Source: Candidatus Bathyarchaeia archaeon (GTDB lineage: Archaea; Thermoproteota; Bathyarchaeia; TCS64). Taken from it: a DNA stretch of 64,000 bases. The stretch spans positions 64,001 through 128,000 of the forward strand of contig JBEKDF010000001.1 of the NCBI GenBank assembly GCA_050014495.1, in the 5' to 3' direction. Below, piece after piece: positions 11,858-23,617 of the stretch. Both the position numbers and the translations under genes were made by a program. Every line of letters begins with the position of its first letter. Position 1 is the stretch's first letter. The notes under the pieces were generated by a model. That model ran no database searches, had not been told where the DNA came from, and worked only from the letters and a program-made list of their open reading frames with translations.

Positions 11858-12502
11858 TCAGAACAGCTTGACGGCCTCACCCATGGTCGTCTTCAGGTAG
11901 ATACTCTTGATGTTGGCGTAGCCTCTCTTCGTTGCCCCTACGAGGTTGTTTAGGACAGTTTCGATGTTCTGGGCTACCTGCTCGTCCGTCATGTTCTCTC
12001 GTCCTACCATGCAGTGGCAGAACATCTTGTCCCTGCTCCTCAGCACCACGGCCCGACGCTCACGTTCTATGACGTTGTCGACTGGTGCCTGTGGCGGCAC
12101 TGGGGTAGGCATTTTACCGCGGGGGCCCAAGATGGGTCCGGCTACACGACCAACTGTCGGCATCAACGGCGCCTCGCTAATGAATATGTCGAAGTCCTTG
12201 AGTCTCTTCTTCGCCGCCTTTTTGTCCTTAGCAAGCTCGTTTAGCTCCGCTGGCTCGATGACCTCGTCTGCCCCGCTCCTGCGAGCCCTGAGGGCCAGAT
12301 CGCCACCTGCGAAAACTAGGACCTTCTGCCCACCTATACCGTTGGGGAGCTGAACACGTAGGTTGACCCTGTTCTCGGGACGCTTCATGTCGAGCTCGCG
12401 GAGGTTAATAGCTAACTCGAAGGTCTGCTCGAAGCGACGCTTCTTAGAGGCTTGCCTCGCCTTTGTGATAGCCTCGTTAATATCCTTGCGTTGGAGTGAC
12501 AT
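11858..12502 (-). CDS. rpl1: 50S ribosomal protein uL1
   Basis: RRFEQTFEL, LGPRGKMP, KTTMG. Confidence 0.96.
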   Translation of the reverse strand: MSLQRKDINEAITKARQASKKRRFEQTFELAINLRELDMKRPENRVNLRVQLPNGIGGQKVLVFAGGDLALRARRSGADEVIEPAELNELAKDKKAAKKRLKDFDIFISEAPLMPTVGRVAGPILGPRGKMPTPVPPQAPVDNVIERERRAVVLRSRDKMFCHCMVGRENMTDEQVAQNIETVLNNLVGATKRGYANIKSIYLKTTMGEAVKLF

Positions 12503-12504
12503 AT

Positions 12505-12990
12505 TTAATTCTCCTTTAGCTGGGCATCGTAGGCCCCGCTCTTTATGAGGTCTTGGACCTCCTTGGCGGACTTACCGTCGACCGTAACACCCATGCTATG
12601 ACATGTGCCGAGGACTTCACGCGTCGCCGCTTTAAGGTTAGCTGCGTAGAGACCCGCTCTCTTCTTCTTGGCGACGTCCACGAGCTGGTCGAAGGACAGG
12701 TCACCCACTTTAGCTGAGTGTGGCGTTCCTGAGCCCTTCTGGATACCTACCGCCTGAGTGAGTAGAGCGAATGTGCTGAGCATCCCGACTTTAACAGTGA
12801 ACGCTCTAGTGTCAGTATCTATGAACACATCCACAGGAACGGGTGTCCCCTTGTACTCGTCGGTCTGATTGTTGATCTCGGCGACGATCTGCATGATATT
12901 GACGCCCATCGGGCCAAGCGCTGGACCGATTGGCGGACCACCTGTCGCCCCCCCACCGGGGACGATAAAGTTGAATTTTTTCTCGACCAA
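12505..12990 (-). CDS. rpl11: 50S ribosomal protein uL11
   Basis: ATGGPPIGPALGP, GTCHSMGV. Confidence 0.96.
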   Translation of the reverse strand: MVEKKFNFIVPGGGATGGPPIGPALGPMGVNIMQIVAEINNQTDEYKGTPVPVDVFIDTDTRAFTVKVGMLSTFALLTQAVGIQKGSGTPHSAKVGDLSFDQLVDVAKKKRAGLYAANLKAATREVLGTCHSMGVTVDGKSAKEVQDLIKSGAYDAQLKEN

Positions 12991-12992
12991 AC

Positions 12993-13445
12993 CTAGTTAG
13001 CTCCTTTAACCTCCCGGACATAGTCGGCGTGAACGGTTATCGGCAGGCTAAAAGCCGCCTCCAAGATCTCGATTGTAACTTCCTCCTTGGAGGTATCCAC
13101 GCGCACCACTCTCGCCTGCATTCCCTTGAAGGGCCCAGCTACCACGTCCACAAGGGTGCCCTCAGCCAAGCCCTCAATTGCCGGCTTCGTCTCCAAGTAG
13201 TGCTCGACCTCTTGAGGCGAGACGGTTCCTTGGATGCGCTCCCTTGCGTATCGGACGCCCCGAATAAGCTCATCAACCATGTGAGGATTGACGCTTTCAA
13301 CGATTATGTAGCCCTTCAGCTCCGACGGCGCGAGTATGGCGAGTATAGCTATATGCTCGATCTTCGCCTTATCGGCTAGCATATCAGCTACTGTCCTCTC
13401 CTGGCCGTTTGTGACCTTCACCGCGTAAAGCTGGGTCTGGGGCAT
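12993..13445 (-). CDS. spt5: Transcription elongation factor Spt5 (NusG)
   Basis: NGN domain (KGYIIVE) plus KOW motif (VVAGPFKG); start ATG 13445. Confidence 0.95.
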   Translation of the reverse strand: MPQTQLYAVKVTNGQERTVADMLADKAKIEHIAILAILAPSELKGYIIVESVNPHMVDELIRGVRYARERIQGTVSPQEVEHYLETKPAIEGLAEGTLVDVVAGPFKGMQARVVRVDTSKEEVTIEILEAAFSLPITVHADYVREVKGAN

Positions 13446-13546
13446 GTCTGGCACATCTGCCACGTCCGGTTGCACCGTAAGCGTAAGTGGATGGCTAATA
13501 TTAATATTGCTGAACCTAGAAAACGTAGCCACTTGGAATGGCTTAT

Positions 13547-18065: not shown

Positions 18066-18371
18066 ATGGAGTACATGTACGCCGCTATGCTTCTCCACAG
18101 CGCTAAGAAGCCCATCACTGAGGAGTCAGTAACCGCAATCCTCAACGCCGCCGGTGTCCAAGCCGATGGTGTACGCGTCAAGGCTCTTGTCGCTGCCCTC
18201 GCAGAGGTCAACATCGACGAGGCCCTTAAAACGCCGGTCTTCTCCGCTGCCGCAGCCCCAGTCGCCGCTCCGGCTGCTGAGGTTAAGGAGGAGAAGAAGG
18301 CAGCTGTGAAGCCAAAGGTTGAGGAGAAGAAGGAAGAGGATCTTCAAGGTCTGGGCGCTCTATTCGGTTAA
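18066..18371 (+). CDS. rpl12: 50S ribosomal stalk protein P1 (aL12)
   Basis: [11 protein letters not shown]...Ala-rich hinge...GLGALFG; true start ATG 18066. Confidence 0.96.
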
Positions 18372-18451
18372 CCTCCTAAACCTTATTCTATTTCTTCCCC
18401 TATTCACATTTCAGTTTCCGGAGTCTGACCATGTTGCATCATTCTCCTATA

Positions 18452-20353
18452 ATGCTCACTTCTGACGAAATCCGCAGTCGATACCTCGCCTACTATATGA
18501 GGAGAGGACACATCGAGATCCCGTCATCCTCTCTTCTACCCGAAGGCGACGTGACGACCCTCTTCACGGGATCAGGCATGCAGCCTCTGATCAAGTACCT
18601 TCTTGGCGAGCCTCATCCCTACGGAAGCCGCCTAGTGGACTCACAGAAATGCTTCAGGTCAGAAGACATAGACGAGGTGGGGGACAACAGGCACACGACG
18701 TTCTTCGAGATGCTGGGTAACTGGTCGCTGGGTGACTACTTCAAGTCGGAACAGCTTCCATGGGTATTCGAGTTTCTGGTGGAGGAGTTGGGGATAGACC
18801 CGACCCGGCTCTACGTCACAGTCTTCTCCGGAGAGAAGAAGTACGGGATCCCGAAGGACGACGAGTCCGTCGAGATCTGGCGCTGCCTCTTCAAGAAGGT
18901 GGGCATTAAGGCGAAAGCCGTCCAAATCGGTGACCCCAACCGAGGAAGCGAGGTAGGTATGCGGGGCGGTAGGATATTCTACTATAATAGCATGAAGAAC
19001 TGGTGGAGCCGGGCTGGCCCACCGGAGAAGATGCCGGCCCGCGAACCCGGGGGACCCGACTCGGAGATCTTCTACGACTTCGGCACCCCCCACGACCCCA
19101 AGTATGGGACTCACTGCCACCCGAACTGCGAATGCGGTAGGTTCATGGAGATTGGGAACTCGGTGTTCATGGAGTACAAGAAGACCGACGATGGAAGATT
19201 CGAGAAGCTACCCCAGAGGAATGTTGACTTTGGAGGAGGACTTGAGAGGATAAGCGCGGCAGTCACCGGCAACGCGGACATGTTCGCGATTGATACGCTC
19301 AAGTGCCTGACCGACGCGCTCCCAGGGGGCATCGAGGCAATGCGCTCCAAGAGGATCATAGCTGACCACGTGCGCGCCGCGGCTTTCCTCATCACCGATA
19401 GCGTCGAGCCCTCGAACAAGGATCGCGGGTATATGCTCCGCAAGCTCCTGCGGAGGTCGATCGTCCATGTGAGAATGCTTGGGCGCTATGAGGGAGACGT
19501 AAACAACCTGAGTGCTGGCTCCGATGAGATCCTTGAGCGGCTCTTCGGGATCATTTGCGACGAATACGCTGGGACGTACAAGCTCGACAGGGAGAAGATA
19601 CTCGCTGTGTTCCGGGGTGAATCCCAGAAGTTCAGGAACACCTTCACCGCGGGCATGCGCCAACTGGGACGCTATGAGACCGTGGACGTGGACACGGCCT
19701 TCAAGCTCTACGAGAGCTTCGGGCTCCCATACGAAGTGATCAAGGAGTTCGGGGGAGCCAAAGCAGCCTCCCTCACCCGTGAGGCTTTCGAGGAGAGGCT
19801 CGACGTTCACAGACAGCTCTCCCGTGCTGGAGCGGAGAAAAAGTTCGGAGGGCACGGACTAATCCTCGACACGGGGGAGCTGAAGGCGAAGGATCAGGCG
19901 GAGATGGAGAAGGTGACGCGCCTGCACACCGCGACGCACCTGCTGCACGCTGCCCTCCGAGAAGTTCTCGGAGACGAGGCGAAGCAAGCGGGATCAGACA
20001 TCACCCCCGAGCGGCTACGCTTCGACTTCACCTTCCCCCGGAAGCTGACGGAAGAGGAGATCAAGAAGGTAGAGGAGATAGCCAACAGGATCGTCCAGCA
20101 GGACGTCAAGGTAGAGTGCCGCGAGATGCCTAAAAGCGAAGCGGAGAAGACCGGAGCGCTCTTCTTCTTCAAGGCAAAGTACGGGGATAAGGTAAAGGTC
20201 TACTACACGGGGGGTAGCCTCGAAGGAGCCTTCAGCAAGGAGTTCTGTGGAGGACCCCACGTCGAGCGGACTGGCAAGATAGGTAGGATCCGAATCACGA
20301 AGGAGGAGGCGGTCGCTGCCGGGGTCCGTAGAATCAGGGCGGTTGTCGATTGA
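18452..20353 (+). CDS. alaS: Alanine--tRNA ligase, short bacterial type lacking the C-Ala domain
   Basis: LFTGSGMQP, FFEMLGNWSLGDYFK, DFGGGLER, IADH, editing motifs HTATH and CGGPH; ends at GVRRIRAVVD. Confidence 0.95.
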   Translation: MLTSDEIRSRYLAYYMRRGHIEIPSSSLLPEGDVTTLFTGSGMQPLIKYLLGEPHPYGSRLVDSQKCFRSEDIDEVGDNRHTTFFEMLGNWSLGDYFKSEQLPWVFEFLVEELGIDPTRLYVTVFSGEKKYGIPKDDESVEIWRCLFKKVGIKAKAVQIGDPNRGSEVGMRGGRIFYYNSMKNWWSRAGPPEKMPAREPGGPDSEIFYDFGTPHDPKYGTHCHPNCECGRFMEIGNSVFMEYKKTDDGRFEKLPQRNVDFGGGLERISAAVTGNADMFAIDTLKCLTDALPGGIEAMRSKRIIADHVRAAAFLITDSVEPSNKDRGYMLRKLLRRSIVHVRMLGRYEGDVNNLSAGSDEILERLFGIICDEYAGTYKLDREKILAVFRGESQKFRNTFTAGMRQLGRYETVDVDTAFKLYESFGLPYEVIKEFGGAKAASLTREAFEERLDVHRQLSRAGAEKKFGGHGLILDTGELKAKDQAEMEKVTRLHTATHLLHAALREVLGDEAKQAGSDITPERLRFDFTFPRKLTEEEIKKVEEIANRIVQQDVKVECREMPKSEAEKTGALFFFKAKYGDKVKVYYTGGSLEGAFSKEFCGGPHVERTGKIGRIRITKEEAVAAGVRRIRAVVD

Positions 20354-20425
20354 TACAGCCCCAATTTTTCGAATAAGGATTATTCTATAACCGAAGCGCG
20401 TCAAGCCAATTTTCTAAGGGACAGA

Positions 20426-20650
20426 GTGGCGACCGACTACTTCATCGAGATCGGGAACCGCCATCGCGGGCACGAGACACTCTTTGCCTCCGTCATGTAC
20501 ATTGAATCGGAGAAGAGGATCGCCGTAAAGGTCGAGGACCCGGCAACAGGCCAAGGCCTCCACGCAGGTAAGCTCATCAAGGAGATCGCCAAGCCTATGC
20601 GTGGTAGTGGGGGAGGACAGCAGCACCTGTGCAACTCTTTTTGCTCATAA
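20426..20650 (+). pseudogene. Relic of an AlaRS C-terminal C-Ala/DHHA1 domain
   Basis: GLHAGKLIKEIAKPMRGSGGG resembles the DHHA1 GGxGGG motif; the terminal AQGG is lost; lies between alaS and leuS. Confidence 0.65.
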
Positions 20651-20701: not shown

Positions 20702-23617
20702 ATGGTTGACTGGAAAACACTGGAACAGAAGTGGCAGGGGCGCTGGACGGAGGCTGCAGCCTTCGAGACCGACCCCGATCAGGAGAAGCCCAAATATTAC
20801 CTGACCGTTGCATATCCGTACCCCAACTCGCCTCAGCATATTGGCCACGGCAGGACCTACACCCTGACTGACGTACACGCCCGCTACATGAGGATGAGGG
20901 GATACAATGTCCTCTTCCCCATGGCATGGCACTTCACAGGCACACCACTATTCGCTATGGTAGAGCGCCTCAAGGAGCACGACCCGAGCCTCGTCGACAC
21001 CTTCCTCAACCTCTACGGCATACCTGAGTCAAAGCTGCACGAGTTAGAGACCCCTGTCTCAATGGCGACGTACTTCGCAAACGAGATCAAGGGGGGCATG
21101 AAGAAGATCGGTTACAGCATCGACTGGCGCCGGGAATTCACAACAGTCGATCCCTACTACAGCAAATTTATAGAGTGGCAGTTCGCCAAGCTGCGCCAAA
21201 AGGGGTACATCACACAGGGTAGCCACCCAGTCGGTTGGTGTCCTCATTGTGGTAACCCAGTCGGGCAACACGACACAATCGGGGACAAGGAGCCAGAGAT
21301 CGAGGAATTCACCCTGATAAAGTTCAGGAAGGTTGACACGGTTTTCCCCGCAGCTACCCTGCGCCCTGAGACCATCTATGGCGTCACCAACATGTGGCTC
21401 AACCCCGATGCGGTCTATGTCGAGGCTAACGTTGATGGAGAGACATGGATTGTGAGCGCTGACGCTGCTAAGAAGCTCGAGATGCTAGGACATAAGGTCC
21501 AGGTCGAGACCGAGTTCCAAGGGTCCCGCCTCATCGGTCAAACATTGACGAACCCGGCAACGGGTAAAGAGATTATAATACTACCAGCGCCCTTCGTCGA
21601 CCCTAAGAATGCTACGGGTGTAGTAATGAGCGTCCCCGCACATGCTCCATTCGACTATGTTGCCCTAGAGCAGCTGAAACGCGAGGTCAAGACAAACCCA
21701 AATGCCTACAGCATCAAGCAGAGCGATATTTCACTACTTGAGCCAATCAGTGTTATTGAGCTACCCGGCTACGGCGAGTCACCCGCCATCGACATCGTCA
21801 AAAAGATGAAGATCACAGACCAGAGCAGCCCCGACCTGGAAAAGGCGACCAAGGAGATCTACAGCGACGAGTTCCATAGCGGAAAGATGAGGGGAAATAC
21901 TGGCCAGTACGTTGGCCTAAACGTACAGGCTGCGAAGGAGGCTGTCAAAAATGACCTAATCGCCAACGGAAACGCTTCGACGATGTATGAAATGATAGAA
22001 CCCGTCAAGTGTCGCTGCGGGACAGATGTCGTTGTCAAGATATTCGAGAATCAGTGGTTCATCAACTACGGCGACGAGGCGTGGAAGAAGCTAGCGCGAG
22101 AGAATATCGATGAGATGGAGATAGTTCCTCGGGAGCTGAAGCAGGAATTTTTAAATGTCGTCGACTGGCTGAAGGCGAAAGCATGTGCAAGGAAGGCAGG
22201 GATGGGTACACGTCTGCCGTGGTCACCAGACTGGATCATCGAGTCCTTATCAGACTCCACCATCTATATGGCGTACTATACAGTAATCAAGGGCATTAAT
22301 GAGGTCAAGCCAAAGCCAGAGCAGCTGACTGAGGCCTTCTGGGACTACGTCTTCCTCGGTATAGGCACGCCCATCAAGGTCGAGGCAACCACGGGAATTC
22401 CGATGGAGAAAATTGAGGAGCTGCATAATGAGTTCAGCTACTTTTACCCCTTGGACGCCCGACACAGTGGAAGGGATCTGATACCTAACCATCTGACCTT
22501 CATGATCTTTATCCACGACGCTATCTGGGGGAGAGAACTCTGGCCCCAGGGCATCTTCGTCAATGGCTCCGTCCTCATGGAGGGTGCGAAAATGAGCAAG
22601 AGCATGAACAACATCATTCCCCTAGTCAATGCCATAGACCGCTTCGGCGCTGACCCTCTGAGACTCAGCCTCATGATCACAGCGGAGCCGCTTAAGGACG
22701 CAGACTTCAGCCCAGACCTCGCTAAGAGCATGATTGGGCTACTCGAGAACCTATACATCCGCGCACAGAGAATAGTCTCAGAGAAGCAAGACAGCGACTA
22801 TGAGCTGCAGGAGATAGACCTCTGGATGCTGAGCAGGCTGCAGAGCCATATCAGCGACGCAACCGAGGCTATGCATGAACTCAAGGTCAGGAAGACGATA
22901 CATGCTGCTACCTACGATATCGAGGGAGATATGGACTGGTACCTGAAGAGAGTAGCCTTTGACAGGGAGCATGTGGAGAGGAAGAATGCGATAAGCCACG
23001 TCGAGTGGACAGTGCTAGACACGCAGGTTAGATTGCTTGCCCCTTTCACCCCTCACATTTGTGAGGAGATCTGGGAGCAAATGGGTAATGAGGGCTTCGT
23101 CGCCTTCGCGCCTTGGCCCGAGGTCGATGGAACGCTCATCAGAGAGGACGCTGAGGAGTTGGAGACCATCATTAAAACCTGCGCCGAGGATGTCTCAAAC
23201 ATTACTAAGGTTATAGGTATCAAGCCTGAGATTATCCATTTCTACACTGCCGATAATTGGAAATGGAAGATGTTAGAGAAGGCGATAGAGATGCAAGCAA
23301 AGGGCGCAGTGGATATCGGAACCCTGATCAGGGAGGCTTTCAAGGACGAGGAGATGAAGATGAAGCAGAAGGAGGTCCCAGCCTATGCTAGGACCCTAGT
23401 GGAGGAGGTCAAGAAGATGCCCGATGCCACCCTAAAGCTTCGACGCGAGATGGGCTTCGTCAATGAGACTTCACTCCTGCAAGATGCAGAAAAGTTCCTG
23501 AGGGCAGAGTTCGGCTGTGATATCACCGTCTCAGGGGAAAGCGACCCATGGATCGTTGACCCAGCGAAGAGAGCGAGCCGCGCCAAGCCATATAGACCAG
23601 CCATCTACGTTGCCTAG
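20702..23617 (+). CDS. leuS: Leucine--tRNA ligase, archaeal/eukaryotic type
   Basis: YPYPN..HIGH, ATLRPET, MSVPAHAP, ESLSDSTIYMAYY, KMSKS. Confidence 0.97.
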   Translation: MVDWKTLEQKWQGRWTEAAAFETDPDQEKPKYYLTVAYPYPNSPQHIGHGRTYTLTDVHARYMRMRGYNVLFPMAWHFTGTPLFAMVERLKEHDPSLVDTFLNLYGIPESKLHELETPVSMATYFANEIKGGMKKIGYSIDWRREFTTVDPYYSKFIEWQFAKLRQKGYITQGSHPVGWCPHCGNPVGQHDTIGDKEPEIEEFTLIKFRKVDTVFPAATLRPETIYGVTNMWLNPDAVYVEANVDGETWIVSADAAKKLEMLGHKVQVETEFQGSRLIGQTLTNPATGKEIIILPAPFVDPKNATGVVMSVPAHAPFDYVALEQLKREVKTNPNAYSIKQSDISLLEPISVIELPGYGESPAIDIVKKMKITDQSSPDLEKATKEIYSDEFHSGKMRGNTGQYVGLNVQAAKEAVKNDLIANGNASTMYEMIEPVKCRCGTDVVVKIFENQWFINYGDEAWKKLARENIDEMEIVPRELKQEFLNVVDWLKAKACARKAGMGTRLPWSPDWIIESLSDSTIYMAYYTVIKGINEVKPKPEQLTEAFWDYVFLGIGTPIKVEATTGIPMEKIEELHNEFSYFYPLDARHSGRDLIPNHLTFMIFIHDAIWGRELWPQGIFVNGSVLMEGAKMSKSMNNIIPLVNAIDRFGADPLRLSLMITAEPLKDADFSPDLAKSMIGLLENLYIRAQRIVSEKQDSDYELQEIDLWMLSRLQSHISDATEAMHELKVRKTIHAATYDIEGDMDWYLKRVAFDREHVERKNAISHVEWTVLDTQVRLLAPFTPHICEEIWEQMGNEGFVAFAPWPEVDGTLIREDAEELETIIKTCAEDVSNITKVIGIKPEIIHFYTADNWKWKMLEKAIEMQAKGAVDIGTLIREAFKDEEMKMKQKEVPAYARTLVEEVKKMPDATLKLRREMGFVNETSLLQDAEKFLRAEFGCDITVSGESDPWIVDPAKRASRAKPYRPAIYVA

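Follow-up and report, generated by a model that had tools for sequence, protein, structure and literature searches.

Xenologous gene displacement in situ is said to have been described by Omelchenko et al. in 2003; in such cases a foreign orthologue replaces the resident gene and gene order is kept. The tyrRS genes of Proteobacteria and the ThrRS and SerRS genes of archaea exist as homeoalleles, divergent isofunctional forms which usually occur once per genome, are patchily distributed and share a common gene neighbourhood, and flanking genes have been proposed as homology arms for the spread of the tyrRS homeoalleles (PMC3191353). In haloarchaea, 90% of testable transfers were homologous replacements (PMC3542582). 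A bacterial aaRS, LeuRS-B, replaced the archaeal form in most Halobacteriales and spread within the group; it is non-syntenic and very ancient, its donor is unidentified and some genomes carry two forms (PMC3436685). Exchange of aaRS between CPR bacteria and archaea has also been described, in the form of TyrRS and TrpRS transfer from DPANN to CPR (PMC5370408). AlaRS is counted among the most stable aaRS (PMC5388404).

What happened at the alaS locus of Bathyarchaeia belongs with the known homeoallele swaps, or with xenologous displacement in situ, but is recurrent and crosses domains. It differs from the latter in its recurrence (at least three sources), junction remnants and probable onward spread, and from the described homeoalleles in that Bathyarchaeia has four alleles, one native and three foreign from another domain, with remnants still visible. 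Compared with LeuRS-B, the short alaS of the host genome lies in the native slot, its donor group is identifiable and the copies are mutually exclusive. Compared with the DPANN case, transfer ran in the opposite direction and the recipients have genomes of 1.5–3.1 Mb and are not DPANN symbionts. New here are a source in another domain, with donors among the CPR for two of the three lineages, as well as the recurrence at one locus and the visible remnants. Our literature search, the scope of which stopped short of subscription journals and supplements, found no paper on AlaRS replacement in Bathyarchaeia; the aaRS trees there may show it.

The short AlaRS gene and the remnants of the native alaS

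The window is a stretch of 64,000 nucleotides from a Bathyarchaeia MAG of TCS64 (G000, the host genome; other G numbers denote comparison genomes), and its alaS locus is laid out in Table 1. An alternative in-frame ATG at 18431 would lengthen the 633-aa product by 7 aa, and relatives begin at the equivalent of 18452. The sequence-only reading had described an AlaRS of about this size with bacterial-style motifs, and the ORF and every quoted motif were recovered (LFTGSGMQP, FFEMLGNWSLGDYFK, NWWSRAGPPEKMPAREPGGPDSE, HTATH at residue 492 and CGGPH at 599). A stretch containing NWWSRAG, taken there for a private insert, is instead a signature common to CPR AlaRS in our alignment. Pfam searches placed tRNA-synt_2c at residues 6–480 and tRNA_SAD at 581–628, and found DHHA1 absent from the ORF.

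Table 1. Features of the alaS locus in the window
Feature	Positions	Strand	Remarks
rpl12 (archaeal P1), left neighbour	18066..18371	+	TIGR03685 110.6 bits, above the model cut-off; precedes alaS at both native and short-type loci
Native rpl12-alaS spacer, ending in TTGCA (start codon plus two bases of the displaced alaS)	18372..18438	+	
12-base leader arriving with the short gene	18440..18451	+	CATTCTC..TAATG
Short alaS (type A, Paceibacteria-derived)	18452..20353	+	633 aa plus stop; class II catalytic and tRNA-recognition domains, editing core, without C-Ala
Non-native tail of about 40 bases	20354..20394	+	Junction as in G011 (DNA alignment)
Remnant of archaeal alaS (C-Ala globular/DHHA1 part)	about 20395-20626	+	Open stretch corresponds to native residues 812-878
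leuS (archaeal), right neighbour	20702..23617	+	TIGR00395 1039.9 bits, over cut-off

The native counterpart is found in G002, the nearest relative by flanking genes (leuS 91% identical in aa), which holds a 906-aa archaeal AlaRS in the slot scoring 1069.8 bits against TIGR03683. The short AlaRS scores 204.8 bits against the same archaeal model, below its cut-off of 744.7. Aligned with the native enzyme, it lacks the archaeal Cys-rich N-terminus of about 40 aa, the beta-barrel preceding the editing core and C-Ala. It shares the domain layout of the PRK01584 family (NCBIfam NF002436) and exceeds the curated cut-off (571.6 bits against 529, covering model positions 2–592 of 595), differing as the sole AlaRS of an archaeon, with CPR-specific insertions and a Glu at the equivalent of E. 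coli D400. The predicted structure has a mean pLDDT of 79, with a low-confidence linker before the editing core (456–478). Compared with its G011 homologue, the gene has a pN/pS of 0.15 and is under purifying selection.

With a GC content of 57.8%, alaS is richer than leuS (53.0%) and the amidase gene (51.9%), as had been noticed. Its GC3 of 0.753 stands against a genome mean of 0.596 ± 0.10 (96.6th percentile among 1422 ORFs), and its overall codon bias reaches only the 85th percentile among 224 ORFs of similar length. This excess does not trace the donor: high GC was rejected as a donor fingerprint, as the two closest CPR alaS genes have GC3 values of 0.58 and 0.44 and one native alaS reaches 0.78. 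Type-A copies range from 0.73 to 0.90 in their hosts.

The reported lack of C-Ala applies to the ORF and not to the locus, since a decayed native C-Ala piece lies directly downstream (DHHA1, E 1e-5). This remnant is 67% identical in aa to the native protein of G002, shares 169 of 231 bases with it, is frameshifted before the GTG at 20426 and has lost the final ~30 native codons. Upstream, the spacer aligns to the native locus of G002 and G016 as far as their TTG CA(G), and the leader that follows matches the type-A copies in G006 and G017 and not the native locus. G009 and G011 retain 11 native codons at the 5′ junction, and the 3′ junctions of G000 and G011 are identical. A masked search detected remnants in seven of 52 short-type genomes (53 loci), namely G000, G009, G011 and G005 with type A, and G146, G248 and G282 with type C (types as described below). 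Both ends are preserved in G009, G011 and G146, the remnants of the last being 82–86% identical to a congener's native protein, and G005 retains native residues 457–551 and 781–906. No remnant was detected in six of the ten type-A genomes. As remnants flank the short gene, the newcomer sits inside the footprint of the old one. The sequence-only reading was incomplete here: the leftover piece of the native alaS had escaped it, and the event also occurred in other genomes.

An assembly chimera or a contaminating CPR contig might be considered in a MAG scored 7.5% contaminated, and the earlier reading had asked for read support across the junctions. Contigs from three of the four runs not marked as a possible source (X4, X6 and X7) bridge the 5′ rpl12-alaS junction, two of the four (X4 and X6) bridge the whole alaS-to-leuS stretch, and X7 and X10 reach into the remnant, all with zero differing letters. 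Hence the locus is no chimera, and the nine other species of the genus with an 80–90% identical gene directly after rpl12 also render this explanation vanishingly improbable. The runs best holding the window are peat and wetland metagenomes. It is likewise very improbable that the downstream ORF encodes a free-standing C-Ala partner in a split AlaRS. Its 74 codons are open from GTG and score over the DHHA1 cut-off, and its pN/pS of 0.29 (0.20 between two intact natives) is well under 1; a low pN/pS is, however, expected for a recently dead gene. The frameshift falls just before the GTG, the final native codons are deleted and the helical part of C-Ala is missing; furthermore, the remnant is frameshifted in G011, mostly deleted in G009 and undetected in the six type-A genomes mentioned above.

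Several other features of type-A loci were observed. Some 50 bases ahead of alaS, seven type-A genomes (L114/L116/L117/L118/L113) have in common a conserved leader, AAAAAAGGTTTTTGAG..GAGCCCAGTCCATTC, which is absent from the native locus and is possibly a promoter travelling with the gene; comparison of the leaders of type-A and CPR genes revealed no clear common motif. In G017, a 66% identical copy of the last ~50 short-alaS codons lies 1.3 kb downstream (L113:1617-1769), perhaps a remnant of an earlier short allele which was itself displaced. Three extra genes, encoding a 123-aa protein, a 478-aa APC-like transporter (by eye) and a 174-aa membrane protein, separate short alaS from leuS in G012 (L115:7803-10313). 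Within the host family, rpl12 stands apart from the spt5-rpl11-rpl1-rpl10 run, in the opposite orientation (window 11858-13532 versus 18066-18371), and in other families that run is kept directly ahead of alaS.

Ancestry and recurrence of the short types

Type A formed one clade in trees of 306, 74 and 40 proteins (support 1.0, 100 and 100), the large trees being quick searches with SH-aLRT only; the native protein of G039 was left out of the AlaRS trees. With IQ-TREE, type A (100) fell within a 99-supported clade holding named Paceibacterota and Sungbacteria proteins. The phylogeny thus agrees with the sequence-only reading on both a cross-domain transfer and a Patescibacteria/CPR-like donor, with type A nested inside Paceibacteria AlaRS and its grouping with archaeal AlaRS rejected (p-AU 0.008). 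AU tests also rejected the union of type A with the two other short types described below, B (7e-49) and C (6e-5), and of all three (1e-55). Beyond the host clade, the best match is P0037 (71%), which shows 100% identity to a gene from the Paceibacteria genome G1174. This 1.1-Mb genome belongs to the same order as G473, and G473 to the same class as a named Paceibacterota record. The alaS of G1174 follows a bacterial rpoD-like gene, as does that of G1336. Two proteins 81–82% identical to the short AlaRS (P0031 and P0068) are annotated as Bathyarchaeia, P0031 being at zero distance from the protein of G017, which belongs to the host's genus. Loci from the contig search were 43–70% identical, with none of the host clade among the matches listed, and the genome loci are the named tree references. 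No transfer vector was found, the best full-length match among nine viral-contig matches being 47% identical.

No second full alaS was found in G000 (3.1 Mb, 96% complete), the other hits being three free AlaX-like genes; this answers another check raised by the earlier reading. Judged from sequence, the short AlaRS of G000 is very probably of Paceibacteria (CPR) ancestry, lies in the footprint of the native alaS and likely charges all tRNA-Ala. Such an origin directly documents gene flow from CPR to Bathyarchaeia within the core translation machinery.

The host family comprises 71 genomes in our dataset, of which 39 possess a short AlaRS, 20 the native form, none both and 12 neither; most genomes compared are incomplete MAGs. 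Across the class sample, short AlaRS were detected in 53 of 401 genomes, including 14 of 330 outside the host family, and a search of the phylum sample with type C returned five of 401. All native loci fetched (n = 34; 18 of the 20 in the family and a further 16 elsewhere in the class) place alaS beside rpl12 and/or leuS, hence the slot is ancestral. Short alaS has rpl12 upstream and/or leuS downstream in 38 of 39 family genomes and nine of 13 fetched from outside the family; the loci of G355, G058 and G064 lay outside the fetched set. As the native alaS of relatives occupies the same rpl12/leuS slot, the proposed replacement at the gene's own locus is upheld.

The short genes belong to three types (A, B and C), about 40–49% identical to one another. 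Type A is restricted to ten genomes of one genus. Type B, found in G007 (L121:6411-8276) and inverted between rpl12 and leuS, is nested among Microgenomates AlaRS (Collierbacteria, Woesebacteria) and has two close relatives at 86–90% identity, one of them named Bathyarchaeota. Type C, a separate clade, occurs in 28 family genomes and 14 outside; the homologue matches listed for it are relatives at 86–100% identity, and among named sequences it comes closest to two plasmid genes of Bacillales (55%). By their sequences these are three separate short lineages in one slot, and likely separate transfers. Type-C genes were also seen in other settings: in two genomes of another family (G114 and G121, f29; L174 and L175) the gene does not follow rpl12 but precedes spt5 in divergent orientation, while in other f29 genomes leuS no longer adjoins alaS, and G940, from another class of the same phylum, has a type-C AlaRS (62%; L355:411-2171) on a short contig without visible rpl12 or leuS ORFs.

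The distribution of types requires at least 11 changes on the leuS tree (48 genomes, G009 being left out owing to gaps), although leuS is linked to alaS, and, with unlinked markers, at least five within the genus (17 genomes). Both leuS and amidase make native G004 the sister of G014, a type-C genome (100/100).

Probable onward spread between species

Four-fold degenerate sites are far more alike in type-A alaS than in its flanks. Identity between G000 and G011 was 178/262 in alaS versus 301/750 in the flanks (p 8e-15), between G000 and G009 178/259 versus 172/393 (p 3e-10), and between G005 and G015 60% versus 32%. Native control pairs showed no such alaS spike (36% versus 40% and 42% versus 44%). 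The alaS tree groups G000 with G009 and G011 (100/100) and G005 with G003 and G015 (100/100), and places G008 and G012 apart, although as species they are sisters. Nucleotide markers and leuS, on the other hand, join G000 with G002, a keeper of native alaS (97/97 for leuS). On rpoB+rpoA+EF2, a single clade uniting the type-A hosts was rejected (p 2e-8), as was a clade of G005, G003 and G015 (p 6e-6); for G014, the EF2, the rpoA fragment and a second, more divergent piece of rpoB were excluded. A clade of G000, G009, G011 and G013 was not rejected on protein markers (p 0.23) and the amidase tree joins G000 with G009 and G011 (87/86), hence the case for recent transfer involving G000 is built on the spike at silent sites together with the leuS and nucleotide marker trees; base composition differs among the hosts. 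The informative sites change over near 18150 and again near 20620, as would a tract of ~2.5 kb.

These data indicate that the G000 copy likely came via another Bathyarchaeia species and not straight from a bacterium. Its GC3 (0.75 in alaS against 0.62 in markers) suggests G000 as the receiver, whereas the 95% identity of the rpl12 3′ end between G002 and G009 suggests the reverse direction. An alternative history would have each type acquired once, long ago, and inherited vertically, with patchiness arising from native alaS returning to G002, G016 and G004 from relatives. Type A is indeed limited to a single subclade within the genus and is present in G005, the deepest member of that subclade. 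In G009 and G011, moreover, the spacer, the 5′ remnant and the 3′ half of rpl12 are nearly identical to native G002, which indicates traffic involving the native allele. Returning native genes could explain part of the patchiness. As a full account we consider it unlikely, given that native alaS diverges like its flanks in the control pairs and type-A alaS shows identity spikes and splits sister species; remnants also vary by lineage, and those of G146 are still close to a congener's native protein.

Predicted function and possible drivers of replacement

G3:U70 is the universal identity element of tRNA-Ala, read by an Asn/Asp pair (N303 and D400), and in E. coli C-Ala is the module chiefly responsible for tRNA binding, yet a viral AlaRS that lacks it works (PMC10036535). 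The three intact host tRNA-Ala have G3:U70 and A73, and the short AlaRS retains the class II motifs and the HxxxH/CxxxH editing core. It keeps the equivalent of N303 (N322). D400 corresponds to E421 (window 19712-19714), with Glu in nine of nine type-A rows, Gln in types B and C and Asp in eight of nine natives. Across short AlaRS in the 306-protein alignment, this residue varies (E, Q, A, S, T, D) and its Asn partner is nearly invariant. The free AlaX-like genes of G000 (L189-L191; contigs C11, C49 and C12) encode 158, 216 and 236 aa, all score under the AlaXM cut-off and show the editing Cys/His spacings CGKQH, CGGTH and CFGTH.

We infer that in an ancestor among the Bathyarchaeia an alaS from CPR inserted into the native gene, probably through illegitimate recombination. 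Such an insertion would have destroyed the native gene, hence the newcomer would have been essential at once, and the leftover native ends would then have decayed. From its motifs and the compatible tRNA-Ala, the foreign enzyme is predicted to be functional in the host, as AlaRS reads only the acceptor stem, and the three AlaX-like genes could back up editing. Subsequently, rpl12, native remnants and leuS would make a ready replacement cassette for homologous recombination between species of the genus, with rpl12 and leuS likely acting as left and right homology arms. The same slot would also have been entered by the Microgenomates-derived AlaRS and by the third short type.

Whether selection drove the swaps is a matter of two competing explanations. 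Short AlaRS may have been favoured for resistance to natural alanyl-adenylate mimics or other attack on the native enzyme, which we regard as possible but doubtful. Three separate short types in the slot, none coexisting with the native gene, would fit this, as would the two full-length matches among 73 plasmid records, both in Bacillales clusters (55% identical to type C, and one 41% to the G000 short AlaRS). These uncharacterised clusters (L365:5989-7776, NZ_CP053558.1; L366:5980-7767, NZ_CP068052.1) place a short AlaRS with ATP-grasp, MFS and S66 peptidase genes, one also with an extra 386-aa AlaRS-related gene, and by analogy could possibly represent biosynthesis of an aaRS inhibitor with a self-resistance copy. 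In the ascamycin AcmD/AcmF pair, the extra AlaRS is the resistant one (PMC12945691). However, AcmD has 871 aa and is not of the short type (PMC4257720), and 20 of 71 relatives keep the native enzyme. Alternatively, no advantage would be needed: copies landing elsewhere would be redundant and lost, and a copy inside alaS would be locked in as essential, the smaller protein (633 versus 906 aa) being at most mildly cheaper. We give this slightly less than an even chance. It agrees with the remnants on both sides, which place the newcomer inside the old gene, with the inversion of type B, as random insertion could produce, and with the lack of any genome with both types; by itself it leaves unexplained why one family shows at least 11 changes and the other 330 genomes contain 14 of short type.

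These results mean that AlaRS, despite its listed stability, probably underwent at least three cross-domain replacements at a single locus. The genomes offer a natural time series of in-place displacement, from fresh remnants (G146, G009 and G011) through piecemeal deletion (G005) to none in most, and near-sister species differing only in allele (G000/G002 and G014/G004) are material for asking why. They also add a large group of predicted sole AlaRS which lack C-Ala and have a changed G3:U70 contact residue, and make alaS a risky marker gene in the Bathyarchaeia class. Tentatively, the slot may be an ongoing swap site, which at least three foreign AlaRS, two of them from different CPR groups, entered separately and from which they sweep between species under selection against the native enzyme, the selecting agent being for instance an AlaRS-targeting natural product. 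If this were true, it would mean repeated intimate DNA contact between CPR bacteria and Bathyarchaeia.
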